Below, piece by piece: positions 12,348-63,967 of a stretch of 64,000 bases of DNA. Below the pieces are notes generated by a model. It was not told the DNA's origin. It saw only the letters and a list, made by a program, of their open reading frames with translations, and did no database searches. The translations under genes were made by a program, and so were the position numbers. Source of the stretch: a virus (Duplodnaviria; Heunggongvirae; Uroviricota; Caudoviricetes); IMG/VR virus record IMGVR_UViG_3300033066_001908; one strand, 5' to 3'. Positions within the stretch are counted from its first letter, which is position 1. The number at the start of each line of letters is the position of its first letter.

Positions 12348-12353
12348 ATCATT

Positions 12354-46395: not shown

Positions 46396-46565
46396 GCAAA
46401 TAGAAATGCCACCACAAAAGGAAAACAGCCGCGGCGTCTACCGACACGCTGCAGCTGTTCAAACATAACCCGCTCACGCTCCATCTTCATGAGTGTAGCG
46501 GCTGTGCCAGGACAGGCCGCCCGGTGTGGGCGGCCGTAGCACCAGATGTATTCGCGTTGATCCAT
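46359..46565 (-). CDS. Small protein with C-terminal TM helix (68 aa)
   Basis: The ATG overlaps the SPFH gene stop (TAATG). C-terminal FPFVVAFLFACLGFLCWLF. Confidence 0.35.
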   Translation of the reverse strand: MDQREYIWCYGRPHRAACPGTAATLMKMERERVMFEQLQRVGRRRGCFPFVVAFLFACLGFLCWLFCR

Positions 46566-47464
46566 TACTTCTTTTCGTCCAGGTCATTCATGTTAATGAG
46601 CGGGACGGAGTTCCCAGTGAACTTCGGCAAAGCCCCATTCCACTTCTGAGTCATCAGGTAGTGAGTCAATGCCGGCGTCACTGATTCTGCCAGGATCTTA
46701 TTGCCCTGTGCCTTCAGCTCGATCTGTTTCAATTCCGCTTCAGCTTCGATGATCACGTTACGGGCGCGCCCTTTGGCATTCTCGGTTTCCTGATCGGCCT
46801 CGGCTTTCGACTGGGCCACCTTGTTCTGCGCCTGGATCGCAAGCTGTTGAGCCGTAATGGTCGCGTCGATACTGGCCTGAATCTTTTGCTCAGGTCTTGG
46901 TGCCGAGGCGAACGACAGCATGTGGATCACGATACCGTATTCCGCCATCTGTTTATTCAGCTCAGCTTTGGCCTTGTCGAGCATATCGCTCTTGCCTTCA
47001 CCAAGAATGGCCATCGTGTCCATCTTTTCGGCTTCACGTGCCAGCGCCTCCCGCACATGGTTACGCAACCATTGGTGGGAAATGTTGTCGATGTCACGCC
47101 GCAACTTATCGAACAGCACCGGCACCTTCTCGTCCTGGATCTCATACGTCAGCCCCACATCGACATTGATCTGCGCCCCCTTCGAGCTGGAGATCATGAT
47201 GGACTCGTCGACCGGGTTGCCCTTCGCGTCCTTGCTTTCCTTGCCCCAGAGCACGTTCTGCTCGAAGACAGGAAATTCGTGAATCGATTCGAACAGTGGA
47301 TTGTACCAGGCTCGGCCAACACCAATTGGCTTCGGATCGATGCCCTTGTGCTTACCGCTGGCATTCACACGCACACCGACATTACCTGAATCGATCCACT
47401 GGTAAGTACAACCGGTGAACAGCAGGCAAACCGTCGCAACAATCAACAGAGGGATACGCTTCAC
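46565..47464 (-). CDS. SPFH/Band-7 (prohibitin/HflK-like) domain lipoprotein
   Basis: Start taken at GTG 47464 (GGAGAG SD, overlaps the upstream stop as GTGA). Lipobox LLFTGC. The SPFH-type core runs from GNVGVRVNASG to the long Ala/Gln/Lys-rich coiled coil AQQLAIQAQNKVAQSKAEADQETENAKGRARNVIIEAEAELKQIELKAQGNKI. Confidence 0.65.
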   Translation of the reverse strand: MKRIPLLIVATVCLLFTGCTYQWIDSGNVGVRVNASGKHKGIDPKPIGVGRAWYNPLFESIHEFPVFEQNVLWGKESKDAKGNPVDESIMISSSKGAQINVDVGLTYEIQDEKVPVLFDKLRRDIDNISHQWLRNHVREALAREAEKMDTMAILGEGKSDMLDKAKAELNKQMAEYGIVIHMLSFASAPRPEQKIQASIDATITAQQLAIQAQNKVAQSKAEADQETENAKGRARNVIIEAEAELKQIELKAQGNKILAESVTPALTHYLMTQKWNGALPKFTGNSVPLINMNDLDEKK

Positions 47465-47658
47465 TTGACTCTCCAAATCCAACGAAACACGTGATAGCCG
47501 CAGACCACAAGGACTACGACTCCGACACAACCGAACCTGAACTCGACGTCCGAGTCAGAATTCAAAAGCTCAACCATCGTCGACCAGACAATCATGAAAA
47601 GGACTGCCGCAATCGCCGACTCAACAATCCGAACCGAAATTGGATACTTGTTCTTCAC
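47461..47658 (-). CDS. Small membrane protein upstream of SPFH gene (possible NfeD-like partner)
   Basis: 65 aa with two hydrophobic segments (AIAAVLFMIVWSTMV; CVGVVVLVVCGYHVF). It is translationally coupled on both sides (ATGA/GTGA). Confidence 0.4.
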   Translation of the reverse strand: MKNKYPISVRIVESAIAAVLFMIVWSTMVELLNSDSDVEFRFGCVGVVVLVVCGYHVFRWIWRVK

Positions 47659-48491
47659 TCGTCTGCCTCAACTTCCCTACGAGGTCGCAACTGGATCGCC
47701 CGGCCAGCCATAGGGCTTGGACGCGGATCGGGCTGCTCGGCCCGGCTGCATTCACTTTCAACAATATGGTCAAAGATCTGCTGCCAGGGAATATCGCGGT
47801 GCCTCGCCATCCTGGAAGTTTGCGCGTCAGTCAGGGTGAACAGGATGCACCGGTCATTGAAGTATGTAACGGGTAAAGCGTCCCTGTGGATCAATTCCCC
47901 GCGATCATTCTCGATCGTGACCGACTCAGACCCATCCGGATTCGTGATATACGACGTAACGCGGCCTCGCTGAACGAGATCAGGCGTTTCGATACCTGCT
48001 TCGTACTGTGGCGTCTGGCTATTGTCGTGGATTGGCACATCCACCGGATCGCCGTTATACGACATGACCCGGCGTGTTTGAGGCTCGGACAGACCCAGGT
48101 TCGCCCGCGCGATCGCCGGATTTGTAAGATCCGCCAGATTAGCTGTCGCGGTAAGTACAGTTCCTGCCTCTTGAGCTTGTCGCAACTCTCGGACCTCAGT
48201 GGCCAAGGCCTCAATCCGATTCAGCATCTCGCGGGTCAGATCCACGCCGCCACTAACAAGCTCGCCGGCTCGGTATGTCCCCGCTTGGCGAATTGCAGGC
48301 CCTTGCTGGGCCTGCAACATCTCCTGCGTGCGGGAATGTCGTTCATCGTCCGCCCGCCGCGCGGCAATTTGGGCAGCCTGTTCCTGCTGACATTGCTGCA
48401 GCCAATTCCGAAACTGATTCCCGGACGGTGCTCTTGGTGGGACAATCCCACTAACAGGCCGGGGCGGGTCATCATTCTTCCAGAAAGCCAT
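47655..48491 (-). CDS. Hypothetical protein with tail-fibre-like ARANLGL motif
   Basis: TATANLADLTNPAIARANLGL resembles the conserved N-terminal motif of phage tail-fibre proteins. The remainder is unassigned. Confidence 0.4.
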   Translation of the reverse strand: MAFWKNDDPPRPVSGIVPPRAPSGNQFRNWLQQCQQEQAAQIAARRADDERHSRTQEMLQAQQGPAIRQAGTYRAGELVSGGVDLTREMLNRIEALATEVRELRQAQEAGTVLTATANLADLTNPAIARANLGLSEPQTRRVMSYNGDPVDVPIHDNSQTPQYEAGIETPDLVQRGRVTSYITNPDGSESVTIENDRGELIHRDALPVTYFNDRCILFTLTDAQTSRMARHRDIPWQQIFDHIVESECSRAEQPDPRPSPMAGRAIQLRPRREVEADE

Positions 48492-49661: not shown

Positions 49662-50339
49662 TTATTGGGAGCAATACATTTTCTCTGTGATGGCATCCCG
49701 CGTTCGCAGCGCACTGGGGAATAGTCGCTGCACGCAGGCATAAAACCCGTCCATCCCGGGTTTCCGGTCCCAGATGAAATGCCCAATACAGGCATCCGTC
49801 TGATCCCAGGTCTGGTCACCGTCAGCAACCATGTGGTTGTACACATCCGGGTACTCACACACAGTGGGTTTAACCGAAGCAACCGCACGGGCCAAGGACA
49901 GCTGATCAATGTGCTTGAACTTGGTCCACTCTTCATGCCACCTGTTGAACAGGTAATCGGCCGCATGGCCTGCATGCCACATGAAGATGCCGCCATTGTA
50001 CTGGACAGCATCTCTACCCAGCAATTCCACCGTATAATTACGCTCGTCTGGATAAGCGTGATCACAGCGCTCCACGGTCGGAGTCCGGTCCTTGCGGAAA
50101 CTGAAAGTCGCATCCTGCAAGTAGTTCCAGATATCGTCGATTGGTTTCACGACGAGCGTATCACAATCCAGATACAAGGTCTTTGAGAACTGTGAGCACA
50201 TGTTCAACATCGTTTTGAGCGAACGGGATGCTGCTTTATCGTTCAGACCTTTTGCATTGTAGATCTTCGACACGTAACCGATTGTGATGTTGAACTCGGG
50301 CACAAGATCCACCGTATGCGCCACCGGTTCAGTGGTCAC
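49662..50339 (-). CDS. GT8-like glycosyltransferase (nucleotide-diphospho-sugar transferase)
   Basis: KTLYLDCDTLVVKPIDDIWNY matches the GT8 vlYLDaDiivrgdl.eLw DxD block. GTG start directly abutted by tandem repeats. Confidence 0.5.
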   Translation of the reverse strand: MTTEPVAHTVDLVPEFNITIGYVSKIYNAKGLNDKAASRSLKTMLNMCSQFSKTLYLDCDTLVVKPIDDIWNYLQDATFSFRKDRTPTVERCDHAYPDERNYTVELLGRDAVQYNGGIFMWHAGHAADYLFNRWHEEWTKFKHIDQLSLARAVASVKPTVCEYPDVYNHMVADGDQTWDQTDACIGHFIWDRKPGMDGFYACVQRLFPSALRTRDAITEKMYCSQ

Positions 50340-50340
50340 G

Positions 50341-50385
50341 ATGTGAATCGGATCGCAGGTGAATCGGATCGCAGGTGAATCGCCG
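50341..50385. repeat. Tandem direct repeat, 16-bp unit GTGAATCGGATCGCAG x2 plus a partial third
   Basis: GTGAATCGGATCGCAG GTGAATCGGATCGCAG GTGAATCGCCGAG, located 1 nt upstream of the GTG start of the GT8-like gene. Confidence 0.5.
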
Positions 50386-50459
50386 AGCCACCAGGGCCGA
50401 CGTCAGAGCTGCTTCGAGATGCGGTCGCCCAACAGCGCTGTAAATGATTCCTTGCGACA

Positions 50460-50705
50460 TTAGAACTCCGACTCCTGCACAATTTTGCACTCGTCCATAA
50501 GGGCCTGCGCGTGCGCCATCGTGATCTCATCCGGATTATCGCAGGTCGCCGCCAGCTCACTGACATGCTCGTCTATATCGTTAAGGTCAGTGGCTTCCTT
50601 GAGCCCACACACTGCCTCGACTGCCAGATCCAGAACATCGCAGGCCTGCCAGTAAGCCTCTTTCGCGCGAACTGCATCCTGAAGTGCTTTCAGTACGTCG
50701 TCCAT
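50460..50705 (-). CDS. Small acidic protein (81 aa)
   Basis: ORF. Confidence 0.35.
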   Translation of the reverse strand: MDDVLKALQDAVRAKEAYWQACDVLDLAVEAVCGLKEATDLNDIDEHVSELAATCDNPDEITMAHAQALMDECKIVQESEF

Positions 50706-50718
50706 CAGTCACCTCAAC

Positions 50719-51039
50719 TTATTGTGAATCAACCACACGCCCAGGGCTACAAGTCCTAACATCACGATCACCACCCACATCGGTCACTTCCTTTCGCTCC
50801 GGGATCACACGTGGCGGTAGACCTTCCAATTCCAGAAGGCGGCCATCGAGATGGACAAAGAGCTTCATAAACGTGTCACGATGCTGCTCTAACTCTTCAA
50901 CTCGTTGCCGCAACACATGCAGCTCCGTCATCGGAATGCAGGGCTCGGCCACTGCATACTCGTACCGGGGCGAAGTCACATACACCAGGCCAACGCCCAG
51001 CAAAATCCCAATCACAAAAACACTTGCAAGCGATCGCAT
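50719..51039 (-). CDS. Membrane-anchored coiled-coil protein (hypothetical)
   Basis: N-terminal TM SVFVIGILLGVGLVYV followed by TELHVLRQRVEELEQHRDTFMKLFVHLDGRLLELE. Confidence 0.4.
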   Translation of the reverse strand: MRSLASVFVIGILLGVGLVYVTSPRYEYAVAEPCIPMTELHVLRQRVEELEQHRDTFMKLFVHLDGRLLELEGLPPRVIPERKEVTDVGGDRDVRTCSPGRVVDSQ

Positions 51040-51047
51040 AGGGCACC

Positions 51048-51776
51048 TTATTTGCCTGACTCTTTATCGGGCCAGAGGGTTACGGAAAAGTAGGGATTGG
51101 GTTGTGCCGGTTGACCCATCACAGGCGCCCTGGGCCGCGGTTCACCATGCAGGCACCCGCAAGCCATTCCTAACTGCCACAACACACACGGAAGACTGAT
51201 CTGGTCCCGAACACTCCACTGCAGGATGTATTCGCGCCAGAGCGAGTTCAACGCTGCCATCTGTGGCGTATGCTGACGAATCACACAAGCCGTCCCGTAC
51301 AAACCATTCTGATCGGCGTAACCCAGGCTCTTAAAGAACGCGAGCATACCATTGATCAGGTCTGGATCATCCAACTTCTGATCAATGCACGCCTGCGCTT
51401 CCTCAGCAACCGTTCGACGCCGAGGGTGCCTGAAACAAGTGATGTCGTGATAGTTCGTAAAGTTCACCAGCTCGTAGAAGTCCACGATCGGAGTGTGGGT
51501 CGCATCGAACCAGATCGACCGAGTCGCTTCCGGAAACAGGATCTCCGGACTCAGCTTGATCAATCGTGCCGCGCGTCGAGGCGTTGACGCAATATCCTCC
51601 CAGTTGATGCGCGACACATGCCGCCAGCATGATGGGTACGGACCTTCTCGATCCGTGACCAATACGGTCTTGATGTGGTGCTGTGGGATGTCCCAGCTCT
51701 GGATCGGCTCACTGCCGCCGAAGTTCGCTGAGTAGGCCACAGTACCCGCCCCGCCAATCAAACCAGTTAAGCCCAT
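51048..51776 (-). CDS. Putative DUF616-like (TOD1/MUCI70-like) glycosyltransferase
   Basis: Start taken at MGLTGLI (ATG 51776). VAYSANFGGSEP...IKTVLVTD, RRAARLIKLSPEILFPEATRSIWFDATH and FRHPRRRTVAEEA resemble the DUF616 YaaIfGnYD / RrnaKipKllpHrlFP..rySiWiD / h.eR..eE blocks. Confidence 0.4.
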   Translation of the reverse strand: MGLTGLIGGAGTVAYSANFGGSEPIQSWDIPQHHIKTVLVTDREGPYPSCWRHVSRINWEDIASTPRRAARLIKLSPEILFPEATRSIWFDATHTPIVDFYELVNFTNYHDITCFRHPRRRTVAEEAQACIDQKLDDPDLINGMLAFFKSLGYADQNGLYGTACVIRQHTPQMAALNSLWREYILQWSVRDQISLPCVLWQLGMACGCLHGEPRPRAPVMGQPAQPNPYFSVTLWPDKESGK

Positions 51777-53179
51777 TGTCGCGTCCAATCCGTGTGTTGA
51801 TGTTTCACATGCTTCCAGACGCGACTCGCCGTCCGGATCTCCAAGGCCTTCTTCGCGAAGAACCGATCCACTGCTGCCACAACACCGAAGCGACTGTCCG
51901 GATGTTGCACAACGTAGTCATGGCCGAACAGCAAGCCACCTTCTCGCACCTTCGGGTACCAGGCCTGTAAGTCCGCTGTCACTTCAGCATCCAGATGACC
52001 GGCATCCAGGAACACGGCCGCGAAGTATCCATCAGGAAACAACGAAGCCGCCTGCACAGAGGTCATCCGGATTGGGAAGATCCTGCCAGGCAGATCCGAC
52101 ATGTTCTGCAGGAACTTCTGGTAGAGCTTGTCTGGGCCGCCCGCATCCGCCAACGCGGTCCCCAACGAGCTGCCACCGAACCAGGTGTCGATGCAGAACA
52201 GTGGATTAGTCTTCCCGCGCAGCTTCAACTCCGTCGCCAGATAATGGGCCGAAGCGCCCAACCAACAGCCCACCTCGGCGATTGGCTCTCCGTCTGGAAC
52301 ATCTGCTGCAGCACCCGAGTACGGCCCCTGGAAGTCGAAGAACCCGGGAATCGTCTTCCACTTGGTGTTGAACGGCGTGAAGGCATTCGAGGGACGTGGC
52401 TCACAGAGCTTCGTAATCATGGCCTGCAGGGCCTCTTGCCGCAGCTGATTGCGCAGCTCGCCATTCGTTTCCGTCTCTTCCATCGCTGGGTCACAGCTCA
52501 GATGTTGGACCACACCGGCATTCTCACATCGCCCAGGCGTCGTGATCTCTGCGTGGTTGCCACGCTCCATCGAGTACCCGAGTTGGGCACACAGCTTGAG
52601 CTTCTCACCGGCGCCGAAGGGCAGTGTCGGATCGAACCGCAGCTTAGAGTCCTTGTGAAAGGCCAACATGGGCTCATTCGGGACACCGACTGGTTGAATC
52701 GCACCGTCGCCCAGCACGATTGCCCGCACGCTGGGAATCCCCAGCTCTGTGAACTTCGTTTGCTTCGCGACAGCCACAAACTTCTGGTAGTTCTCCGAAT
52801 CGAACAGGCAATCACCATCCAGGACGATCGTCCAGTCGTAACCGCGAGCCTGCCCATCCTCGATCGCCCAGTTGCGCACAGCGTTGATATTGATCGCTGC
52901 GCAAACCTGCTCAGGAAACGTCTTCGCGTTCCGCACAGCGTTCAAATCAACCGGAATCACAACATAATGGGCAGCAAACCGATCCAGCTCCTGTTGGATC
53001 TTACGCCGCACGGAGTGTTCAACGATGCGGTTCAGAATCCAGTGCTCCGTTGGTGTCGCCACCTCAGGCGGATCCTGATCAAAAATCCGGCTGATCGTAC
53101 GCAGCCTGGCATCCGGCAAGTCGCGCGGCGGCAATTCAGAACCGACAATGCGATAGATCCCGATTTTCGGGTCAGCCAT
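51767..53179 (-). CDS. Two-domain protein: N-terminal glycosyltransferase-like domain fused to a C-terminal Methyltransf_24 SAM methyltransferase
   Basis: The N-terminal half has GYDWTIVLDGDCLFD (DxD-like). The C-terminal half has IAEVGCWLGASAHYLA (motif I) and AVFLDAGHLDAEVTADLQAWYPKVREGGLLFGHDY (FxDGxH...GG...HDY). Confidence 0.55.
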   Translation of the reverse strand: MADPKIGIYRIVGSELPPRDLPDARLRTISRIFDQDPPEVATPTEHWILNRIVEHSVRRKIQQELDRFAAHYVVIPVDLNAVRNAKTFPEQVCAAININAVRNWAIEDGQARGYDWTIVLDGDCLFDSENYQKFVAVAKQTKFTELGIPSVRAIVLGDGAIQPVGVPNEPMLAFHKDSKLRFDPTLPFGAGEKLKLCAQLGYSMERGNHAEITTPGRCENAGVVQHLSCDPAMEETETNGELRNQLRQEALQAMITKLCEPRPSNAFTPFNTKWKTIPGFFDFQGPYSGAAADVPDGEPIAEVGCWLGASAHYLATELKLRGKTNPLFCIDTWFGGSSLGTALADAGGPDKLYQKFLQNMSDLPGRIFPIRMTSVQAASLFPDGYFAAVFLDAGHLDAEVTADLQAWYPKVREGGLLFGHDYVVQHPDSRFGVVAAVDRFFAKKALEIRTASRVWKHVKHQHTDWTRQWA

Positions 53180-53190
53180 GTTGCTTCTTT

Positions 53191-54084
53191 CTAAATACTG
53201 AAACCTTGCAGATCCAACACGCCCGAGCGGGTGACATTGGGACCATCTGGATAGTAAGCCGCACGGCCCTCAAGGCCGATCGACAGGCTTTGTTGGTGTC
53301 GCATAGTTCGGATCAGTGAGTTCGTGCCGCCCAGTGACCCGATGAACACGTCAGCCAGCATGCAGCTCTTCATCGCGGTGAAGACCCCAGGATATTCATC
53401 ATCAATGACATGGATGTCAAACGCTTTCCAGTCACTATGGTGGTACAGTTCGCGTGGACCCTGCGTGAACAGGACCGGTCGCGTTTTGTGCAGCCCAAAA
53501 CGCTTCTTGACCGCGTCCCAGGCGCTGAAGAAGTACGCGTCTGGCGTTTCCCAAGATGGTCCGAGCTTGTCACTGGTGCCTGGCGTCCTGCGGTAACACA
53601 CCACATGCGGACCAGGCGCGTCCTCCCAGATTGTTGGAATCATGTGGAAGAACCGTGACTGAAACATCTCCTGCTGGAAGAACTGTGCGGTCTGGGTAAA
53701 CGTCCCGCCAGGCCAGTGATAGCCTTCCCACCAGCCCAAACCCCAGTCCGCACACAGCAACAGCCAATCATCAGGCGTCTCAGCCACCAGCCGTTTGATA
53801 TCCGGGTAAGCTACTGACTGCACGAGTCGGTCAGGTGGCAACGGTCGATACAGCTTTAACGTGATCGACTTGTGTTGTTGCGAAGACACTCGAGGAATAT
53901 CAGCAAACTCGCCCAGGAAGCCATTCCACCCAGCTGCCGCGTCATTAAACGCTGGCCCGTCAACTAGATCGGTGTGCAGGTACTGTCCGCGCTCGGACAT
54001 AAAAGCCAGATGCCTTGCTGCAAACAGGTGCGAGAACTGGTGCCCCACACGCCCTATTGTTGGCCAGCCACCTACATAAAACAT
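53191..54084 (-). CDS. Hypothetical protein, possibly glycosyltransferase-like
   Basis: 297-aa ORF inside the carbohydrate-enzyme cluster. No clear motif. Confidence 0.35.
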   Translation of the reverse strand: MFYVGGWPTIGRVGHQFSHLFAARHLAFMSERGQYLHTDLVDGPAFNDAAAGWNGFLGEFADIPRVSSQQHKSITLKLYRPLPPDRLVQSVAYPDIKRLVAETPDDWLLLCADWGLGWWEGYHWPGGTFTQTAQFFQQEMFQSRFFHMIPTIWEDAPGPHVVCYRRTPGTSDKLGPSWETPDAYFFSAWDAVKKRFGLHKTRPVLFTQGPRELYHHSDWKAFDIHVIDDEYPGVFTAMKSCMLADVFIGSLGGTNSLIRTMRHQQSLSIGLEGRAAYYPDGPNVTRSGVLDLQGFSI

Positions 54085-54094
54085 CGCGAACTCG

Positions 54095-54937
54095 CTACTT
54101 AGAACTGTCCTGTACAGGCGGACGCCTGGTATTCTTGGGGCTCAGGAAGCCCTGCGTATCGTCGAACTTACCCGTCCAAGGTGGTTCGATCAGGCAGCGC
54201 AACATGTCTGCATCCGTCTTGCTGTACGAGATCGCGGCTTGCGCCGCCCAACTCGCATAGCTCTTTTGCTGCGCAGGGTCACGCCAGCACATCCAACCCG
54301 GCGTGAACTTGTAGTAGGCCATCAGTCGGTTGTTGAGCACAGTACGCTGACCAGTGTCCCCATGCACCAGCGATTCGCTGAAGAAGATCAAGTCACCAGG
54401 TTCAAGCTTCGGCACAACCACTGCTGGGTGATTGAGGTTCTGGTTGAACATCTTCAGGTAGATCTCCTTGCCGTCCGCGCGATCAAAGGCCTTGTGCGAC
54501 CCAGGCAGGTAGCAGAAGCCACCCGTCTGGTCGTCTTGCCCTGTCAGACAGATACCCACGGACAACTGACCCACCAAACCCACACGACCGCCGGTGTTGT
54601 GGTAAAAGCATGAACTCTGACTGCTATCCGGCCCGCCGTGAAGCTGTGCCGGCGCCTGGGACTGTTTGGATCCCGAGACACCAAAGGCATGATCCAACCG
54701 CGTGTAATCACCACACATCTGGATTGCTGGTTGAATCAGCACCGGCCGAATCAACCAATCCCAAAACAACGTGCCCAGATTCAGGGTTGGAAACTTCCAA
54801 ACGCCGCGATCGATGTGATTGGAGATCTCAGCCTTTGCCTTAGCGATCTCCACTGCCGGAATCGCCTGCTTTCGGATCAATACCCCTGCGGTGTCAAAGA
54901 TATACTGCTCAAGCGGATCCATTTGACCTGGCTGCAT
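54095..54937 (-). CDS. Phytanoyl-CoA dioxygenase (PhyH) family Fe(II)/2-oxoglutarate oxygenase
   Basis: Start taken at ATG 54937 (MQPGQMD) with an AAGGA SD. LHGGPD (HxD-like), GGFCYLPGSHK and DLIFFSESLVHGDTG (distal His) fit the PhyH family. Confidence 0.55.
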   Translation of the reverse strand: MQPGQMDPLEQYIFDTAGVLIRKQAIPAVEIAKAKAEISNHIDRGVWKFPTLNLGTLFWDWLIRPVLIQPAIQMCGDYTRLDHAFGVSGSKQSQAPAQLHGGPDSSQSSCFYHNTGGRVGLVGQLSVGICLTGQDDQTGGFCYLPGSHKAFDRADGKEIYLKMFNQNLNHPAVVVPKLEPGDLIFFSESLVHGDTGQRTVLNNRLMAYYKFTPGWMCWRDPAQQKSYASWAAQAAISYSKTDADMLRCLIEPPWTGKFDDTQGFLSPKNTRRPPVQDSSK

Positions 54938-55592
54938 AGAACGCGTCCTTAAAAGAGACAAACTGACAATCTTTGGCCATCAGTGCATCGTACATGGCCA
55001 GAATCCGCTGTAGATCACCGGGCTTCTGGAACTCATACGTGTGCCCCCAGAGCATCGCCACAGGAATCGTCTTGCTTTGGTTCAGCAACCGCTCAACCAA
55101 ATTCTCGGTGCCCCAATGCGCTGTTGGCCAGATGCGAAGCGGATCAGTCCACGAATTCGGCGTCCACATCCAATCCTTGGAGTATGGCGGCAGCGAACGT
55201 GCGCCAGCGTAATATTTGGCGGCGAACTTGACCACATCCGCATTGGTCTGACCAAACGGGTAGCACAGCATCAGCACTGGCTTACCGAACCATTCCTGCA
55301 GGCGATACTGGGACTTCGACAGTTGCTCATCCAACATGTAGCCAGGGAGCTTGGTGAAGTCCGGATGCGTCCAACCGTGTGACACGATGTCGTGTGGCTC
55401 GTAGTGACACAAGTCGCTGTGACTGATCAGCTTCCCGTAATACGGATCTTTGGGGTGGTTCGGCTCTCGGACGTCAGGCTTGTACCGACCTGGCGACAGC
55501 GCGAAGGACGCGATGATGCCGCGATCGTTCAAGGCCTCGATCAAAGGCAGGTCACTCTCAAGCCCGTCATCCCACATGGTACAAATCTTCAT
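54909..55592 (-). CDS. Polysaccharide deacetylase (CE4/NodB family)
   Basis: MKICTMWDDGLESD (TFDDG-like motif 1) and VSHGWTHPD (H..H motif 2). ATGA overlap with the sulfotransferase stop. Confidence 0.6.
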   Translation of the reverse strand: MKICTMWDDGLESDLPLIEALNDRGIIASFALSPGRYKPDVREPNHPKDPYYGKLISHSDLCHYEPHDIVSHGWTHPDFTKLPGYMLDEQLSKSQYRLQEWFGKPVLMLCYPFGQTNADVVKFAAKYYAGARSLPPYSKDWMWTPNSWTDPLRIWPTAHWGTENLVERLLNQSKTIPVAMLWGHTYEFQKPGDLQRILAMYDALMAKDCQFVSFKDAFYAARSNGSA

Positions 55593-56251
55593 GTACTGAA
55601 CTTTCGTACGCGCACATGCGCGACTGAGTTAATGATTTGCTCGTGGCTGGTGACACCCAGCATGTTTGCCAGCTTACTGGCCACGGCGAATGGCGTGATC
55701 ACCAAATCCTCGTAGTTGATTGAAACACTCGGCAGGTCGCCGTGCAGCCGGCGCATCAGGGACCATTGATCGAGTTGTACGTCAACCACCTGCTGTTGAA
55801 ACGTCATCGTTTCGCCATCCCTTACCTGCAGGGACTTGACGATCGCGTGGGGCGCCCGGCTCATCCAAACGATCAAGGGCTCGATACCCAGCTCGGCCAA
55901 CGTCTTGATCCCAAAGTCCATGACAAATGGGAACCGCGGATCTTTGAAGCCCCAGTGGCCCAGCGAAGCGCGGTTCCGTTCTTGTGCCAGATCGGCCCAC
56001 TGCTGGGCCAGCACGTCTGTGATCACCGGCCTGGGGAAACGCCAGGCATCGTTGATGAATCCACCCTGGCCATCGTACTCATTGAACATCTGACGATGCA
56101 GATGAACAAACCGTTGGTCTTCCCAGACTTCGTCAACGGTTTTGTTCGTCTGTTCTGCGACACCCATGTCGACGCCAAGGTTATTCAACAGTTGAGCTAA
56201 GCAGGTAGTGCCGCTCCGATGACAACCCACCACGATCACGGTTTCGAACAT
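55589..56251 (-). CDS. PAPS-dependent sulfotransferase (Sulfotransfer_1/3-like)
   Basis: N-terminal VIVVGCHRSGTTCLAQLL is the 5'-PSB P-loop (RSGTT). A downstream R/S-containing 3'-PB-like region is also present. Confidence 0.65.
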   Translation of the reverse strand: MFETVIVVGCHRSGTTCLAQLLNNLGVDMGVAEQTNKTVDEVWEDQRFVHLHRQMFNEYDGQGGFINDAWRFPRPVITDVLAQQWADLAQERNRASLGHWGFKDPRFPFVMDFGIKTLAELGIEPLIVWMSRAPHAIVKSLQVRDGETMTFQQQVVDVQLDQWSLMRRLHGDLPSVSINYEDLVITPFAVASKLANMLGVTSHEQIINSVAHVRVRKFST

Positions 56252-56717
56252 ATTTCCGCTCTTCCTCCACTGCTAGTCCGAGCAAGCGTTCGACATCACT
56301 CGGAGTGCAGGTCAGTTTTGCTTGGTTCAGGTAGTACGGCATGTCCTTGTTGTCCAGCCTGATGTTGGGCACCGTGGCTTCGTACAGGACATCCAGCACG
56401 GCGATCTTATGTCGTTGGTCGACGGCAAGCAACTTAGCGCCGGTTTCCACGTCATTAACTTTGACAGAACAGACCTGATAGCCGTCATCCGTGATCATGC
56501 AGTGAACGAAGTCGCTATTGATCACAACCACCTCACGGTACTGGCCATCGTGCTCGTAGATCATGTTGATGCCGGGAACAATCACATCGCCGAGTGAATA
56601 CACTTCGGCCATTGGTTCAGCGATTTGCACAGTGTGGCCTTTGGTAACAAAGATCTCGATCGACGGTGTGGCAAAACACAAACCGGCTAGACAAACGAAA
56701 ACGAGCAGAAATTTCAT
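56181..56717 (-). CDS. Secreted protein (signal peptide), hypothetical
   Basis: Start taken at MKFLLVFVCLAGLCFA|TPSIE. The 3' end overlaps the sulfotransferase start by about 70 nt in another frame. Confidence 0.45.
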   Translation of the reverse strand: MKFLLVFVCLAGLCFATPSIEIFVTKGHTVQIAEPMAEVYSLGDVIVPGINMIYEHDGQYREVVVINSDFVHCMITDDGYQVCSVKVNDVETGAKLLAVDQRHKIAVLDVLYEATVPNIRLDNKDMPYYLNQAKLTCTPSDVERLLGLAVEEERKYVRNRDRGGLSSERHYLLSSTVE

Positions 56718-56743
56718 GGTTTTCTCCAGGGTGGAAATGACAA

Positions 56744-56763
56744 GAGCCCGGTTGCCCGGGCTC
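56744..56763 (-). terminator. GC-rich hairpin terminator (GAGCCCGG-TTGC-CCGGGCTC)
   Basis: Perfect 8-bp stem, and the minus strand downstream is TTGTCATTTCC. It sits between the stop of 56790..57287 and the next start. Confidence 0.5.
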
Positions 56764-56769
56764 CTGAAT

Positions 56770-56790
56770 CTTATTAGGAACAATAAACTC
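56770..56790. promoter_or_regulatory. Conserved AT-rich palindromic 20-mer, copy C (CTTATTAGGAACAATAAACTC)
   Basis: It abuts the TAG stop of 56790..57287 and is followed by the terminator hairpin. Same arrangement as copy A. Confidence 0.35.
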
Positions 56791-57287
56791 TACGCACCGA
56801 TCTGCGCGTTCTTGTTCGCGGAAGCCGCATCGAAGGCAGAGGCATAGTGAACTTTGATCTGCACATCGGCGTTTGGCAGGTAGTTGTGCGAACGTGCGAT
56901 CGCACAAGCAACTGTCGCAGTCTTGGCCAGCACGGTGTTGGAAAGCAGGCTGTTGCCGCCGTCCTGGGCCGGCGCCAGCATGTCTCCCACCTGGAAGGCA
57001 GATGCCACGCAGCCGGTTTGCCACAGCGACATGGGACTGGTATCCACTTCGATCGCCGTATCTGCGGAGTCACCCGCAAAGTGCTGCGACACTGCCACAC
57101 CCAGAAACTTGGCCGCGAAGGCCGCCTGTGTGGTTGCCAGGTCTGTGGTCCATGTAAACGCATTCGCAGGTTTGCACTGGCCGGTTGCAGTGTCCAACCA
57201 GACCAAATCACCCACCTTGATCGCCGTAGATGACGCGACGGGGACAGTGTGGATGCTTTGCTCGCCACCTTTGTATACGTTCGACAT
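56790..57287 (-). CDS. Small protein followed by strong terminator; possibly an abundant structural/decoration protein
   Basis: 165-aa ORF rich in Ala/Thr/Val (beta-rich composition). The motif plus terminator immediately downstream suggests a highly expressed gene. No family recognised. Confidence 0.4.
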   Translation of the reverse strand: MSNVYKGGEQSIHTVPVASSTAIKVGDLVWLDTATGQCKPANAFTWTTDLATTQAAFAAKFLGVAVSQHFAGDSADTAIEVDTSPMSLWQTGCVASAFQVGDMLAPAQDGGNSLLSNTVLAKTATVACAIARSHNYLPNADVQIKVHYASAFDAASANKNAQIGA

Positions 57288-57299
57288 AGTCCTGATTCC

Positions 57300-57674
57300 T
57301 TACGAGTTTGGGGGCTCGGCTCCGAAGCTGTGGATTGCGATTTCAGGCACGATCTTAATCGAGACGAGCACAAGCTGGCAAATCCAAAACTTGCTGGTTG
57401 CGGTCTGATCCGTTACAGATCGCCAGGCCTGGGGGGTTGAACCCTCCAAATACCACTCATCTTTCCTGGGTGCGCGGAAGATTTGGGTCTTTACCGCCAT
57501 CACCTTGAATTTCACCTCATCGGTTTCCTTCCAGGTATCAGGCTGCAGAATATGCAGCCTGATACCCTGAAAACCAAGACGGTCCAACTCTTCCCGGCTC
57601 GGCTGATCACCGATGGGATATAGGAGTTTGCGGTCAACGGACGTCCGCAAAGTCTCAGTGGACTCGATAATCAC
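57300..57674 (-). CDS. Hypothetical protein (124 aa)
   Basis: ORF. Confidence 0.4.
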   Translation of the reverse strand: MIIESTETLRTSVDRKLLYPIGDQPSREELDRLGFQGIRLHILQPDTWKETDEVKFKVMAVKTQIFRAPRKDEWYLEGSTPQAWRSVTDQTATSKFWICQLVLVSIKIVPEIAIHSFGAEPPNS

Positions 57675-57970
57675 GGCACCTCCCGCACAATCTTCGCTTT
57701 GCAGGTCTCATGGAAGCCATCAAGGAATAATTGAATGTCGTCTCGGTTTCCAGGCACCAATATCGAAGCCAGACGACATATCAAAACCCGGGCGTCGTCA
57801 GTATCCCAACTGTAGCTGAGCACCTGACTCGCAACCGGAAACCGCGTGCTGGTGAGCTTCACTTGACTGCCGATTGGCAGGATACCAGGCCAGCAATGAT
57901 CAATCGAACACTCCACCCTGTATTGACGATCTGCTGTTCCAATGGCGATCAGAAAACGGATCGCATCCAT
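57671..57970 (-). CDS. Hypothetical protein (99 aa)
   Basis: ORF. ATGA overlap with the downstream gene. Confidence 0.4.
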   Translation of the reverse strand: MDAIRFLIAIGTADRQYRVECSIDHCWPGILPIGSQVKLTSTRFPVASQVLSYSWDTDDARVLICRLASILVPGNRDDIQLFLDGFHETCKAKIVREVP

Positions 57971-57977
57971 AACATCC

Positions 57978-58469
57978 TCACTTCTTTGCTTTGGTTTCCA
58001 ACGCGTAAGCTTGCTGAATCATATTGGTGACCGCATCAGCCGGTAACCGCGATCGCACACTCTTGAGAACTGCCGACAATCCACTGGTATCGACAAACTC
58101 GAAACCTTGCGTGTCCCCATCGGCCAGCCAGATCCAAACTGTGCCATAGTCCGTGCCTTTAACGATCCAGAGCTTGAACTTGCACTGGTGCTTGCCTTGC
58201 TCAACTGTGATCTTGGGCCGCTTGCCGCTCTTGGTCTCAATCGTCAGATTGTCCGTCCGCAAGACGACCAACTTCTTCACAGTCTTGTCCGGAGCTGTCC
58301 ATTGTGTGCAGACTGCTCCGGAACCGAACAGCTCGACCGTGTACTGACCGTACCCAACGTCGTCCACTTGCGTGGCCTGTTCGTCGTCTCCGACATAAAC
58401 CTGCATGCCATCTCGGGCAAACGCCGTCGAACATACCAACACCATCGCGCAGATCAACCAAAGCTTCAT
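57978..58469 (-). CDS. Secreted protein (signal peptide), hypothetical
   Basis: Start taken at MKLWLICAMVLVCSTAFA|RDG. Confidence 0.45.
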   Translation of the reverse strand: MKLWLICAMVLVCSTAFARDGMQVYVGDDEQATQVDDVGYGQYTVELFGSGAVCTQWTAPDKTVKKLVVLRTDNLTIETKSGKRPKITVEQGKHQCKFKLWIVKGTDYGTVWIWLADGDTQGFEFVDTSGLSAVLKSVRSRLPADAVTNMIQQAYALETKAKK

Positions 58470-58576
58470 CGTACAAACTCCTTCAAACATCAAACAAACC
58501 CTTTTTTTTAGGTATCTCAACTGGCTTCTCAACCGGCCCTTGCTCTTTCAACAGCTTCTGCATCTCGTTCTGCAGG

Positions 58577-59275
58577 TCACGCGGCAGGAGCTTGTTCACT
58601 GCCAGGCTGCTCAGGTAGTTTAACCTCTTCTGCTGCTTTGGCGTCAACATCGACAGACTCCTTCATCCGAGCAATCCACTCTCGGTTCCGCTCAGGATCT
58701 CGCTGGATCCGCAGATTCACATCAGTTCTGATGTCTGAGACCGCGCGCGGCGTCTCCAGAAACGTAGCAATCTCCCAGATTGTGTTTACCGGTGACTCAC
58801 ACAAATCTTCGTACCAGACTGTCATCTTCGGACCATGGAACTCGCTCAAGCGGCCACGCCAGTAGCCTAACTCCGTTCCCAGTAGATGATACCGATACCT
58901 GATTTGCTTCCTGTCAAATGCCACTTCGGGTGCTGGGGTATCGCCTGCGCGCAACCTGAACTGCCGTGTTGTCCTGGCAACGTAAAGGCTGATCGCCTGC
59001 GCCATCAGATCTCGACGACGTAACCAGATCAGCTTCTGCGGTTGAAAGATGTTTCGCCACCGCTCGTCCGCCGCCTGCGTTAGTTTCATGCCAAATGGCA
59101 CATGGTCAGGTGTCTGAGCCCGTAATGTCTTGAGGAAATCCTGCATGTGCTGCGTTTCGAACGGACCATGATAGTGCAGCAACTGCTCGCCGGGCCGCCC
59201 CAACGCATTCAAGTGCAGCAGCTCTTCCAGGTAGGTCGAACCGCTGCGCAAACTGGTACAAACACCGTATTGCAT
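58577..59275 (-). CDS. Stf0-like sulfotransferase
   Basis: Start taken at ATG 59275 (MQYGVCTSLRSGSTYLEELL), which overlaps the upstream stop as ATGA. The RSGST P-loop near the N-terminus is typical of Stf0 (PF09037). Confidence 0.55.
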   Translation of the reverse strand: MQYGVCTSLRSGSTYLEELLHLNALGRPGEQLLHYHGPFETQHMQDFLKTLRAQTPDHVPFGMKLTQAADERWRNIFQPQKLIWLRRRDLMAQAISLYVARTTRQFRLRAGDTPAPEVAFDRKQIRYRYHLLGTELGYWRGRLSEFHGPKMTVWYEDLCESPVNTIWEIATFLETPRAVSDIRTDVNLRIQRDPERNREWIARMKESVDVDAKAAEEVKLPEQPGSEQAPAA

Positions 59276-59823
59276 CACCGTCTCCTGCAAACCCACAAGG
59301 AATCCGCCAGCTCAAGTGATTCCAACTGACCCGCCGCAATCAATTCACGTACGAACTTGGTCACGCCCGCACACGTGCCATCCGCACCTTCGACAGCGTC
59401 ATGAAAGGCCACAACAGCTTTAGTCATCAGGTTGGGCAGCAGATTCATATAATCGGCTGCCACACCTTCATAGCTGTGGTCCCCGTCAATGAAAGCCAAA
59501 TCGTAGAAGTGGTTGTAACGAACTGTTCGCGAATCAGCGACCAGCCGCTCAACGCCACGTGTGTTCAGATAATTCGAACAGTTCTCATTCTCACGTGTTG
59601 GGTCATTCTCCACGCTGGTGATCGGCACATGCGCATTCGCACCGGCCAGCAAGCAGGTCGACCCACCACGATAACGACCAATCTCCACAATGCCAAAGCG
59701 AGCCTGTTTGGCATAACGCCAGAGCAGGCCCGCCTCGCCAATGTTCAATCGGGCCAAGCCGCGACTGGTTGAGTCACTTGTGAACAACCAGAGCATGTCT
59801 GCCAGATCAGGCGTGTTTCCCAT
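59275..59823 (-). CDS. Class I SAM-dependent methyltransferase (Methyltransf_24-like)
   Basis: IVEIGRYRGGST (motif I) and LAFIDGDHSYEGVAADYMNLLPNLMTKAVVAFHD. Confidence 0.6.
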   Translation of the reverse strand: MGNTPDLADMLWLFTSDSTSRGLARLNIGEAGLLWRYAKQARFGIVEIGRYRGGSTCLLAGANAHVPITSVENDPTRENENCSNYLNTRGVERLVADSRTVRYNHFYDLAFIDGDHSYEGVAADYMNLLPNLMTKAVVAFHDAVEGADGTCAGVTKFVRELIAAGQLESLELADSLWVCRRR

Positions 59824-62355: not shown

Positions 62356-62823
62356 TCACGGTGAAGCTCCTTCGCGTAACGTACCGTCAGGATTCCGCAA
62401 TCGATACCACCAAAGGCCTCGGACACTGGCATCTCGCCGACGATCCACAATCCAACTGCCGAACTTCTCTTTCCGAAGATCCGTGATTCGCGCAGCGACA
62501 CTGCTGGTGTTGCTGTTACCAACACGCGCAGCGATGTCCGCCTGCGTGTGCCAATTGCCGTCACTCATCGCGTGAAACACCCGCCCGAGCGCTGTCTGCA
62601 GTCGATCGTGATCCTGGCTGGGATCGTAAGTTGCACCATCGAAGTGCTGGCCCTGTGCGGCATTGGCCTGTGCCCGCTCGATGTCCGTTTGATACATCGA
62701 GCGGGCGTTTCGCATCGCATCAGCCATTGTGTTCCAGGCCACTTGATCAGTAGATGCAGCATCCCACAAAGTCAAAAACATGTTCACAGCATCAATATAA
62801 GCTGTCTGAGTCTCATGTCGCAT
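62356..62823 (-). CDS. Hypothetical protein with possible winged-helix DNA-binding C-terminus
   Basis: ADIAARVGNSNTSSVAARITDLRKEKFGSWIVDRRR is HTH-like. Weak call. Confidence 0.35.
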   Translation of the reverse strand: MRHETQTAYIDAVNMFLTLWDAASTDQVAWNTMADAMRNARSMYQTDIERAQANAAQGQHFDGATYDPSQDHDRLQTALGRVFHAMSDGNWHTQADIAARVGNSNTSSVAARITDLRKEKFGSWIVDRRRDASVRGLWWYRLRNPDGTLREGASP

Positions 62824-63967
62824 TTGCAGTTTCTACTTTGAAAGGCAAGTCAGCACGCACCGTAATTGGCACGTACCAACGGATCTTCACCTTCTCACGA
62901 TTAGGCCCATACCGAACCGCGTGCGGGTGCCCACCACGAATGTGGGCATACTCCAATTCTCGACCGGTAGGCTCGCCCGTACCGGACTGTTTAACTCGTG
63001 GCCGATGGTCCAAGAACATCAAGTCCGTTCCGACGTTGTAGCCGACCTTACCTTTGCGTCGGGCACGCGCCGCATAGCCTTCACGTTTCTCGGGATCCTG
63101 TTCACGATCAAAATTGTACCTGTCCTTGTTCAGGACATCGGCCTCGCAGATCGTCGGGTTATCGGACAGGAACCCGATTGTCACCACGAGACGCAACAAA
63201 TTGCTGTAGAACTCTTTGTTGAGTCCAGAAATACCTTGGTCGCACTGCAGATAAAAACGATCGATTTCGTCCGCGAGTGAATCAGTGCCGTTCGTGCGTA
63301 AGATGCACGTCACAGGCGGCAACGGCATGTTAAGGCCCATCGCCAAACCTTCCGCGTAGACAATTTCCGCGTCTCCCCGGGCTGCGCCAAAACTTAAAAG
63401 CAAACGCCCATGATCCGGTTGATGCCAGGCCAGTAGCGTACTCACAGAAACAGGTTGTGCGTCTGTTAATTCGAAACTGTACTGTGAAGCCAAATGCTCG
63501 GCCATGTGCCGTGGATACGTGAGAATCTTGACGAAAGGCGGTAAGCGAATGTTCACAGCCTTATATTCATGCGGCATTTTGAACATAGCCGCTGGGATCT
63601 TACTCAAATCCGAGCGGCACAGTTTTTCCACCATTTCCGGATGCACGTTGTAATACGGCGAGCCGGCTTCCAGCCAAACACGTTCCATGGCTGTGATTAC
63701 TTTTAGTTCATCTAAAATGCGCGCCGAACGCGGATCAGTAACTATCCGCGCTTGCGAATGCAACAAATCTTCGAACTGATCAAAGGAAGCTCCCTTGCGA
63801 TCACCATCTGCACGCATCATGCTACGCACACGACCGTACATTGTGTGCCAGTCGAAAAACTTCGTCATTTGTACACGATCTCCCGTTTCTGTTCGGTCAT
63901 ATTTGGCATTGGAGCGAGCAGATAGATCGCGCCCCAACCGTGATAAACCTTCTGAAACCAGCCCCAT
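62813..63967 (-). CDS. Hypothetical protein (384 aa)
   Basis: Long clean ORF. A further minus-strand gene ends at about 63971 (TGA) and runs off the right edge. Confidence 0.5.
   Translation of the reverse strand: MGLVSEGLSRLGRDLSARSNAKYDRTETGDRVQMTKFFDWHTMYGRVRSMMRADGDRKGASFDQFEDLLHSQARIVTDPRSARILDELKVITAMERVWLEAGSPYYNVHPEMVEKLCRSDLSKIPAAMFKMPHEYKAVNIRLPPFVKILTYPRHMAEHLASQYSFELTDAQPVSVSTLLAWHQPDHGRLLLSFGAARGDAEIVYAEGLAMGLNMPLPPVTCILRTNGTDSLADEIDRFYLQCDQGISGLNKEFYSNLLRLVVTIGFLSDNPTICEADVLNKDRYNFDREQDPEKREGYAARARRKGKVGYNVGTDLMFLDHRPRVKQSGTGEPTGRELEYAHIRGGHPHAVRYGPNREKVKIRWYVPITVRADLPFKVETANAT

Follow-up and report, generated by a model that had tools for sequence, protein, structure and literature searches.

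Several groups of viruses encode machinery for glycan synthesis. Chlorovirus PBCV-1 encodes A064R, in which two glycosyltransferase (GT) domains are joined to a methyltransferase (MT) domain (GT-GT-MT), as well as A111/114R; the Megavirinae carry fibril glycogene clusters of 6 to 33 genes, and the clusters of Moumouvirus australiensis, Tupanvirus and Cotonvirus hold sulfate-metabolism genes, suggesting sulfated sugars (PMC9614988). Among phages, mycobacteriophage-encoded GTs act in the cytoplasm and decorate capsid and tail-tube subunits, according to the account of Freeman et al. 2023 given in PMC12619734, and cyanophage P-SSM2 carries 24 "LPS" (lipopolysaccharide) genes that were proposed to alter the host surface and whose function is untested (PMC1079782). 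Here we describe a locus at positions 49662 to 59823 of a 64,000-nucleotide (nt) stretch of DNA from IMG/VR virus record IMGVR_UViG_3300033066_001908 (the whole stretch is hereafter called the window). The locus is a co-directional block of minus-strand genes predicted to encode two sulfotransferases, several GTs, a deacetylase, and a HygX-like oxygenase together with a GT-MT fusion protein. Virus-encoded glycan machinery is already known; this composition and the HygX-like/GT-MT cassette are new.

The giant-virus systems, like the one predicted from the window, are virus-encoded routes of soluble, host-independent synthesis that use multidomain proteins of the GT-GT-MT or GT-GT-GT kind, and giant viruses make O-methylated 6-deoxyhexoses. 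They differ in having eukaryotic hosts, whereas the window belongs to a phage-like contig of ~84 kb; in carrying SAT/APS kinase, whereas the locus has two sulfotransferases and no synthesis of 3′-phosphoadenosine 5′-phosphosulfate (PAPS); and in having a known acceptor (capsid protein or fibrils), whereas the acceptor in the window system is a predicted one. The passages of PMC9614988 that bear on these clusters describe no HygX-like oxygenase or CE4 deacetylase. The clusters of P-SSM2 are comparable to the window system in scale and in uncertainty, but in tblastn searches of 50,697 GenBank phages only the Methyltransf_24 part of the fusion protein matched cyanophages, and neither the oxygenase nor the Stf0-like sulfotransferase had a match. 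Mycobacteriophage GT genes sit in the structural operon; here, in contrast, no structural gene was recognized nearby, and sulfation, the CE4 enzyme and a 2-oxoglutarate (2OG) oxygenase are additional. Finally, the rhizobial Nod-factor enzymes NodB (deacetylase), NodH (sulfotransferase), NodZ (fucosyltransferase) and NodS/NoeI (methyltransferases) resemble those of the locus in logic, at the level of family or fold and not of orthology, and a NodC-type synthase, a NodA acyltransferase and NodPQ were not found in the window.

RESULTS

Two predicted sulfotransferases in a compact one-strand block

The window is the last 64 kb of a source contig of 83,989 bp (Logan SRR32380195_7381; JGI 3300020577 holds copies of 83,870 and 34,863 bp), of which ~72 kb was inspected, namely, the window and 8.2 kb beyond its start (L008). 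All nine open reading frames (ORFs) listed in the original prediction were recovered in the block at 49662 to 59823, and independent gene calls on an identical public contig agreed with the ORFs that the genes occupy one strand over ~10 kb with tight or overlapping spacing. Most junctions overlap or have gaps of 14 nt or less, the overlaps being 1 nt between the stand-alone Methyltransf_24 gene and the Stf0-like gene, 4 nt between the Sulfotransfer_3 and CE4 genes, 29 nt between the CE4 and oxygenase genes, and 10 nt between the fusion and DUF616 genes. With the curated gathering cut-offs of Pfam as the standard, seven of the nine genes scored above threshold.

Two proteins of the locus, with RSGTT and RSGST P-loops, had been proposed to be sulfotransferases. 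The RSGTT protein matched Sulfotransfer_3 (PF13469; E = 1.9e-10; 41.8 bits versus a cut-off of 27), with residues 5 to 201 aligned to positions 2 to 213 of the 216 in the profile, and the PDB matches of its family profile were the mycobacterial sulfotransferase-like chains 2ZQ5/2Z6V, the CurM sulfotransferase, TPST1/2 and SULTs. Residues H11, R12 and G14 (HRSGTT in the window), G101-F-K-D-P-R106, and R132-x7-S140 are invariant in 10 sequences of this family. The start of the gene must be at 56251 because a public gene call of 192 amino acids (aa) drops the HRSGTT PAPS-binding loop. The RSGST protein matched the Stf0 sulfotransferase family (PF09037; E = 3.2e-12; 46.9 bits versus 22), and its family profile matched Stf0 itself (1TEX; E = 3e-31) and NodH (9VKI; E = 4e-5), with R10, G12 and S13 (RSGS in the window) and R88-x7-S96 invariant. 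In this superfamily the P-loop is the 5′-phosphosulfate loop and R-x7-S is the 3′-phosphate motif. No kinase was found among the PDB matches of either profile, both of which matched only sulfotransferases, and an identity as kinases or P-loop NTPases was rejected. We conclude that, as judged from sequence, the RSGTT and RSGST proteins are sulfotransferases and not kinases.

The Stf0-like protein scored 40.7 bits against the trehalose 2-sulfotransferase equivalog NF047724, far below the cut-off of 400, and is therefore a member of the family but not an ortholog of the trehalose enzyme. Its nearest homolog is 33% identical and lies in a bacterial context, and the pair that it forms with the stand-alone Methyltransf_24 gene is specific to this phage, as are the five small genes between the two sulfotransferases. 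None of the annotated genes of the ~72 kb was for PAPS synthesis, and the use of host PAPS is assumed for that reason.

The claim that PAPS-dependent sulfotransferases are rare in viral genomes was borne out. PHROGs contained no sulfotransferase match, the tblastn search of GenBank phages gave one weak match for the two proteins together, and motif scans of 2.9 million IMG/VR contigs retrieved 21 contigs with the Sulfotransfer_3 type and 1 with the Stf0 type, several of which adjoin GT2 or Methyltransf_24 genes. Single-protein scans of IMG/VR with the Stf0-like, fusion and Sulfotransfer_3 proteins returned nothing, and relatives were reached by way of alignments. A literature search found no paper describing a phage sulfotransferase, and one environmental study counts sulfotransferases among viral auxiliary genes (PMC10829341). 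On one unrelated contig (IMGVR_UViG_3300017971_000745; L123, 6093-9313), Sulfotransfer_3-like, Stf0-like and GT32-like genes lie side by side. We conclude that viral pairings of sulfotransferase and GT genes exist, are rare and are uncharacterized.

A HygX-like oxygenase among predicted glycan-tailoring enzymes

The oxygenase gene exceeded the Pfam threshold for PhyH (E = 2.1e-6; 28.6 bits versus 22), consistent with the family first assigned to it, but the activity first ascribed to it, hydroxylation, is better described as that of a HygX-like oxidative enzyme. The profile of the oxygenase family matched HygX in the PDB (4XCB/4XC9; E = 3e-15; profile positions 4 to 218), and the next match was ectoine hydroxylase at E = 2e-4. 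Moreover, H100-x-G102 and E188-x3-H192 are invariant in seven phage sequences and align with the LHGG and E-x3-H segments of HygX, the variant metal site of which is H-X-G...E-X3-H in place of HxD/E...H (PMC13374393). Orthologs of the oxygenase are 41 to 61% identical across the related loci. HygX, the hygromycin B orthoester synthase, and the orthosomycin oxygenases EvdO1/2 and AviO1 are likewise Fe(II)/2OG enzymes of the PhyH superfamily that work next to a sugar ring, and the phage family shares the unusual metal site of HygX over ~215 aligned residues; however, the likeness is detected at the profile level, and the phage context is without aminocyclitol or orthosomycin scaffold genes. We conclude from these sequence comparisons that the "PhyH" protein is a HygX-like oxidative enzyme.

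The deacetylase assignment was confirmed by Polysacc_deac_1 (E = 2e-11; 44.4 bits versus 23.1) and by PDB matches to the polysaccharide deacetylases 4V33 and 4HD5. Its sequence contains WDDG and SHGWTH, consistent with CE4 motifs 1 and 2, and the motif 3 arginine is not obvious. The proposed fusion of a GT-like domain to a Methyltransf_24 domain also held, with the latter in the C-terminal third of the protein (E = 3.6e-16), as did the stand-alone Methyltransf_24 gene at the upstream end of the block. The interval was said to contain three such methyltransferases, but only two lie there; the third is far away and on the plus strand (Table 1). The structures nearest to the Methyltransf_24 domains are those of the sugar O-methyltransferases MeT1, MycE/F, SpnH and NovP, and stand-alone genes of this family are common in IMG/VR, with at least 548 matches.

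Among the candidate GTs, the DUF616-like protein was as predicted (PF04765; E = 2.6e-12; 47.1 bits versus 21.4) and also matched phrog_26101, "glycosyltransferase," at E = 2e-8. The GT8-like call, in contrast, fell below the Pfam threshold (18.4 versus 24.3 bits): around the segment LDCDTLV, which includes a DxD motif, the protein scores 18 to 20 bits against cut-offs of 22 to 24 for Mannosyl_trans3, Glyco_transf_8 and Nucleotid_trans, and it has no PDB sequence match and no ortholog in the related loci compared. It is probably a GT-A enzyme and not a member of GT8. The "putative transferase" of the original prediction has no match in Pfam, PHROGs, NCBIfam or the PDB profiles and belongs to no curated family. 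A model of its structure (predicted local distance difference test score, 84) was closest to fucosyltransferases, with NodZ among the top folds, and the protein contains the motifs GRxGHQ and YxR. We conclude that it is, on the strength of modeled fold and motif, a fucosyltransferase-fold GT; among 1.84 billion proteins, its family has 10 representatives. For the window proteins, NCBIfam gave no further match above its cut-offs. The fucosyltransferase-fold family and the HygX-like oxygenase, the latter found here outside antibiotic pathways, would be new enzyme families for glycan engineering.

A mobile cassette on unrelated phage-like contigs

Homologs of the fusion protein numbered 22 among 5.8 billion clusters, and the full-length ones were on contigs of up to 219 kb. 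Genomic contexts taken from the cluster contigs, IMG/VR and a metagenome scan were compiled by local phmmer and hmmsearch, giving ~19 distinct loci with usable flanks. In all ~19 (G+C content, 0.32 to 0.60; three in IMG/VR), the GT-A(/Methyltransf_24) gene comes directly after the HygX-like gene; the window differs in that the fucosyltransferase-like gene is inserted between them. A sulfotransferase gene is in the flank, usually directly upstream, in ~14 of the 19 loci, a CE4 gene adjoins the oxygenase gene in ~12, and a DUF616 gene is present in 8, with DUF616 orthologs directly after the fusion gene in L009, L010, L014, L015, L099, L125 and L137. Orthologs of the Sulfotransfer_3 type lie upstream of the cassette in the window phage, L009, L010, L014 and L125, and other sulfotransferases are found at the same position elsewhere (type 2 in aquatic lineages, type 1 in L015, and type 4 in L014). 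Because nonorthologous sulfotransferase families replace one another in a fixed position, sulfation appears to be an integral step.

The contigs that carry these loci have almost nothing else in common, with the exception of L010, which is a true relative of this phage, so that the unit behaves like a cassette that is passed on horizontally. The clustering is not due to chance, since the set turns up again in many unrelated contigs, and the cassette forms a compact unit of four to six genes in phage-like contigs from freshwater, marine and other metagenomes. We conclude that the core consists of a sulfotransferase, a CE4 deacetylase, a HygX-like oxygenase and a GT-A/O-methyltransferase, with or without a DUF616 protein, and that it is mobile between unrelated phages.

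Synteny with a cellular LPS or capsule island was not seen, in keeping with the viral origin first proposed for the locus. The core genes were found only on phage-like contigs, and when 185,579 species genomes of bacteria and archaea (one per species) were scanned for motifs, no relative of either the oxygenase or the fusion protein was retrieved. The scans were run with one alignment of oxygenases and one of the 7 closest fusions, 17 fusions together being too divergent; they rest on short conserved peptides, such that the absence is strong but not absolute. We conclude that the cassette is, as far as the sequence scans indicate, apparently virus restricted.

Several carriers have features of their own. 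In L015 (G+C content, 0.32), the fusion and DUF616 genes are separated by an oppositely oriented sulfatase gene (11410-12792), and a Sulfotransfer_1 gene, two TnpB/IS605 elements, an HNH endonuclease gene and a release-factor-like gene are near the cassette. L142 (7908-11782; 229 kb; G+C content, 0.60) has two tandem HygX-like genes followed by a gene for a 738-aa GT-A-containing protein. Aquatic carriers encode, just upstream of the cassette, a protein of 630 to 1262 aa without family assignment, PHROG match or homolog in the window, and in L134 this protein bears a NUDIX domain at its N terminus. In those lineages, the cassette might have the large protein as a partner or a substrate. In L016, a GT_PLOD-type GT gene (8405-9136) of opposite orientation adjoins the HygX-like gene on its upstream side. 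GT_PLOD is a domain of collagen lysyl-hydroxylase/glycosyltransferase enzymes, and its presence gives a faint hint of hydroxylation-coupled protein glycosylation.

Further glycan genes on the contig

The 84-kb contig carries ~21 glycan-related genes, arranged in three clusters plus a gene for a 1319-aa GT4-GT4-GT2 protein (Table 1). An ortholog of the 1319-aa protein (68% identity) is encoded 3 kb from the cassette in L010, and the gene next after it, of the 2H-SAK phosphoesterase family, is likewise kept there, the two at 68 to 77% identity. The GH130-like, 353-aa and Methyltransf_24 genes of the third cluster are syntenic in L010 at 64 to 72% identity; relative to L010, a methyltransferase gene and a GIY-YIG homing endonuclease gene (12354-12941) are inserted between the GH130-like and 353-aa genes. 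In L010, the cassette, the 1319-aa-type transferase and the GH130/Methyltransf_24 cluster all fall within 15 kb. No gene for a polytopic membrane protein turned up in the window, be it a flippase, polymerase, priming transferase or ABC exporter, and a Gtr-type seroconversion system is likewise missing. One GT2 protein of the second cluster (36702-37706) has a weak GtrB-like PHROG match and no transmembrane segment.

Table 1. Glycan locus, further glycan genes of the contig, and the large protein encoded upstream of the cassette in aquatic carriers
Feature	Coordinates	Strand	Basis
Probable GT-A nucleotide-sugar transferase, 225 aa	49662-50339	minus	Sub-threshold Pfam
Acidic protein, 81 aa	50460-50705	minus	ORF and public gene call; no family match
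106-aa protein with N-terminal hydrophobic anchor/signal segment (residues 1-19)	50719-51039	minus	No family match
DUF616/TOD1_MUCI70 glycosyltransferase-like protein, 242 aa	51048-51776	minus	Pfam PF04765
470-aa fusion, predicted novel GT-A (GT2-like) domain (~1-270) and MeT1-like Methyltransf_24 domain (~290-460); core cassette	51767-53179	minus	
Predicted fucosyltransferase-fold GT (GT23/GT65/GT68/GT37-like), 297 aa; very rare family	53191-54084	minus	Model
HygX-like Fe(II)/2OG oxygenase, PhyH superfamily; core cassette	54095-54937	minus	Pfam, PDB profile
CE4 (NodB-homology) deacetylase, 227 aa, no signal peptide	54909-55592	minus	Polysacc_deac_1
Sulfotransfer_3 PAPS-type sulfotransferase, 220 aa, start at 56251	55589-56251	minus	Pfam PF13469
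Predicted secreted protein, 178 aa, signal peptide MKFLLVFVCLAGLCFA; not kept in related loci	56181-56717	minus	
165-aa protein, weak likeness to capsid cement	56790-57287	minus	Phage_cement E = 1.6e-3, sub-threshold
Two small overlapping genes, 124 aa (57300-57674) and 99 aa (57671-57970)	57300-57970	minus	ORFs/gene calls
Predicted secreted protein, 163 aa (MKLWLICAMVLVCSTAFA)	57978-58469	minus	ORF, signal-like segment
Stf0/NodH-family sulfotransferase, 232 aa; accessory, specific to this phage	58577-59275	minus	Pfam PF09037
Stand-alone Methyltransf_24 protein, 182 aa; stop overlaps Stf0-like start by 1 nt	59275-59823	minus	Pfam E = 2.5e-14
Second cluster: 403-aa unassigned (plus), GT4-like 336 aa (minus), GT32 Gly_transf_sug (plus), GT2-like (plus), 209-aa weak MptE/DUF115-like (minus), GT2 (minus), second CE4 (minus)	32368-38394	both	
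Third cluster: GH130-like, Methyltransf_23/11, GIY-YIG endonuclease, conserved 353-aa unassigned, third Methyltransf_24 (13976-14620)	10796-14620	plus	
1319-aa GT4-GT4-GT2 protein, 3′ end; runs off window start (L008 12007-15966)	1-882	minus	
Large protein upstream of the cassette in aquatic carriers	L012 3985-7413; L130 572-3721; L133 2495-5521; L134 3508-5856; L135 1305-3362; L127 3935-6097; L101 5512-8103		

DISCUSSION

Proposed pathway and acceptor

The dedicated pathway for a sulfated, O-methylated glycan that was originally proposed finds support in the enzyme families, and its product would be the one that these families suggest. The block is best explained as an operon-like set of soluble cytoplasmic enzymes that would build and tailor an oligosaccharide. 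This oligosaccharide would contain N-acetylhexosamine and would be assembled through the GT-A domain of the fusion, with the DUF616 and fucosyltransferase-fold proteins, and probably the GT8-like one, as further transferases; the CE4 enzyme would then de-N- or de-O-acetylate it. The MeT1-like domain and the stand-alone Methyltransf_24 protein would O-methylate a sugar, the HygX-like oxygenase would oxidize a sugar carbon, by hydroxylation or an orthoester-type cyclization, and the two sulfotransferases would add O-sulfate with host PAPS. The cassette would work alongside the two further glycan clusters and the 1319-aa triple GT. The presence of the genes, their assignment to families and folds, the invariant catalytic motifs, the kept synteny of the cassette and its confinement to phage-like DNA are observed, whereas we infer the reaction order, the sugars, the use of PAPS and the acceptor. 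The sequences suggest that phages are able to produce sugars carrying sulfate and methyl groups. If such a glycan were placed on the virion or the surface of an infected cell, it would alter charge, the recognition of receptors, and the way in which host or animal defenses recognize the particle or cell.

We tentatively favor the virion proteins of the phage itself as the acceptor, which would be glycosylated in the cytoplasm without a lipid-carrier or export step, as virions of chloroviruses, Megavirinae and some mycobacteriophages are. Consistent with glycosylation in the cytoplasm, the enzymes are without signal peptides and the window is without a membrane or export component. Moreover, the number of glycan genes and the GT-GT-GT and GT-MT fusions parallel chlorovirus A064R and the Megavirinae fibril clusters. 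Weak hints come from two sub-threshold matches, the cement-like 165-aa protein and a protein with a tail-fiber motif encoded 1.2 kb downstream.

Several points weigh against virion proteins. Neither hint is supported by the PDB, PHROGs or tblastn. Above all, no capsid, portal, terminase or tail gene was recognized in the 72 kb or within 8 to 10 kb of the cassette in any related locus, and therefore the cassette does not lie in a structural module, unlike the GT genes of mycobacteriophages. A search of the window for Ser/Thr-rich or collagen-like proteins that could serve as acceptors came up empty. Mobility of the cassette among unrelated phages sits more comfortably with a generic acceptor than with virion proteins peculiar to a lineage. 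Finally, the closest characterized relatives of the enzymes (HygX, MeT1, MycE, SpnH, Stf0, NodH and NodZ) act on small glycosides or oligosaccharides and not on proteins. As to the product itself, it is an unlikely prospect that the cassette gives diverse phages a glycan chemistry for which no viral example is known, with a sulfated, O-methylated amino-sugar oligosaccharide, perhaps with an orthoester or oxidative linkage, that would be either the first sulfated virion glycan of a phage or a soluble glycoside resembling a Nod factor or an orthosomycin.

A somewhat unlikely alternative is that the enzymes remodel the host envelope by modifying, at the cytoplasmic face, undecaprenyl-linked or nucleotide-activated intermediates of the host, which would then export a sulfated, methylated LPS, capsule or S-layer glycan, with the effect of masking receptors, excluding superinfection or keeping progeny off debris. 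Phage glycan genes classically play this role, and the 24 "LPS" genes carried by P-SSM2 were proposed to do so (PMC1079782), but the window lacks the Gtr-type or other membrane transferase, flippase, polymerase and priming enzyme, and no integrase or lysogeny gene was seen in the 72 kb. The CE4, sulfotransferase, Methyltransf_24 and DUF616 families are typical of envelope-glycan tailoring, and a sulfatase gene lies inside the cassette of one relative; against these stands the absence of the core genes from the species genomes scanned, so that a recent capture of these genes from a host envelope pathway is not indicated. Genes for predicted secreted proteins and for an SPFH lipoprotein lie within the locus or adjacent to it, yet the secreted proteins are not kept with the cassette. 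A generic host acceptor would, however, suit a cassette that moves between unrelated phages.

Less probable still is a soluble, natural-product-like glycoside, free or lipid anchored, that would follow the logic of Nod factors or orthosomycins and would serve as a signal, an inhibitor or a metabolic sink during infection. For five enzymes, the substrates of the nearest characterized relatives are small glycosides or oligosaccharides (hygromycin C for HygX, trehalose for Stf0, and a lipo-chitooligosaccharide for NodH, with MeT1, MycE/F, SpnH and NovP and, by fold, NodZ as the other relatives), but the likeness is at the family or fold level only (15 to 30% identity). The CE4 enzyme, without a signal peptide, would be cytoplasmic like NodB, and the cassette is self-contained and mobile, whereas the window has no exporter and no aminocyclitol or aglycone genes in addition to lacking the Nod synthase and acyltransferase. 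The many extra GTs on the contig suggest a larger polymer, and we know of no precedent for secondary-metabolite glycosides made by a phage.

Hypermodification of DNA, in which a tailored sugar on a modified base would protect against restriction, is very unlikely and was rejected. DNA would be a generic acceptor suited to a mobile cassette, an oxygenase paired with a GT follows the logic of the TET/JBP systems, the cassette lies near a helicase gene and a gene for a NUDIX-fused protein in some aquatic relatives, and PHROGs labels the Methyltransf_24 family "DNA methyltransferase." Nucleotide glycosylation and sulfation in phages are also said to have been treated by Iyer in 2013, and phage GTs that hypermodify DNA with diverse glycans are reported in the account of Pyle 2024 given by PMC12619734. 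However, the precomputed Pfam matches for the 72 kb include no thymidylate-synthase-like hydroxymethylase, TET/JBP protein, C5-methyltransferase or hydroxymethyl-pyrimidine kinase, the oxygenase is HygX-like and not TET/JBP, and the Methyltransf_24 domain is structurally a sugar O-methyltransferase. The fucosyltransferase-fold and CE4 enzymes have no known role on DNA, to which sulfate would bring negative charge.

Probable viral identity of the contig

The ~72 kb consists of long runs of mostly small ORFs without family assignment, nearly all on one strand. No cellular housekeeping genes were found in it, and no ribosomal or tRNA genes were found in the window. Phage-associated PHROGs (phrog_1735, phrog_8970, phrog_3921, phrog_200 and phrog_16722) are accompanied on the contig by other phage-type families, namely, Lar restriction alleviation, SprT-like, P22_Y8K6, GIY-YIG endonuclease and AcrVA2-like proteins. 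The 589-aa phrog_1735/DUF8224 protein (24909-26678) has tblastn matches of 33 to 42% identity in 533 GenBank phage genomes from very different hosts and is labeled "hypothetical protein" in every record listed. Megablast of 45 to 64 kb of the window against the GenBank phages gave no match. G+C content is 0.52 to 0.58 across the window, and composition is unbroken at the glycan locus; public metagenome copies of the stretch are all 100% identical to the window, with no strain variation for ratios of nonsynonymous to synonymous substitution (dN/dS).

That the contig is instead a fragment of a cellular genome, a plasmid or another element with an ordinary cellular glycan island would accord with the lack of a recognized major capsid, portal or terminase gene and with the bacterial context of the nearest Stf0-like homolog, but is highly improbable given the missing cellular genes, the many PHROG-only families, the Lar, GIY-YIG homing endonuclease and AcrVA2-like genes, the runs of small unassigned ORFs, and the finding of cassette relatives in IMG/VR and none in GTDB genomes. 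Viral status is very likely rather than proven, because no capsid, portal or terminase was recognized. We conclude that the contig is very likely a phage, possibly a piece of a larger one.

Other features of the window

As originally predicted, three proteins with hydrophobic or signal-like N termini are interleaved with the enzymes (50719-51039, 56181-56717 and 57978-58469). The terminator predicted after the small 81-aa gene was not recovered: the 120-nt gap that follows that gene folds no better than shuffled sequences (z = +0.83), and 8 terminator-like sites were counted versus 11.0 ± 3.2 in shuffles. Just upstream of the GT8-like gene, which starts with GTG, the only sizeable intergenic gap of the locus holds a perfect 16-nt tandem repeat (GTGAATCGGATCGCAG, 2.5 copies, 50343-50382) that could be a regulatory or slippage element.

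The 165-aa protein was rejected as a capsid cement protein, with 19 bits in Pfam versus a cut-off of 27. The 278-aa protein encoded downstream of the locus on the same strand (47655-48491) contains a segment, ADLTNPAIARANLGLSEP, with a weak match to a tail fiber (phrog_2282; E = 8e-4); nothing else in the window hints at a structural gene. The locus is flanked on one side by a gene for an SPFH/Band-7 lipoprotein (46565-47530; phrog_200; E = 3e-61) and on the other by a gene for an AcrVA2-like protein (62813-63967; precomputed Pfam match PF26125). Farther away, a 272-aa protein (39702-40520) without a Pfam or NCBIfam match is matched by phrog_4786, "cysteine dioxygenase," at E = 2e-32, which, if the label is true, would provide a link to sulfur metabolism.

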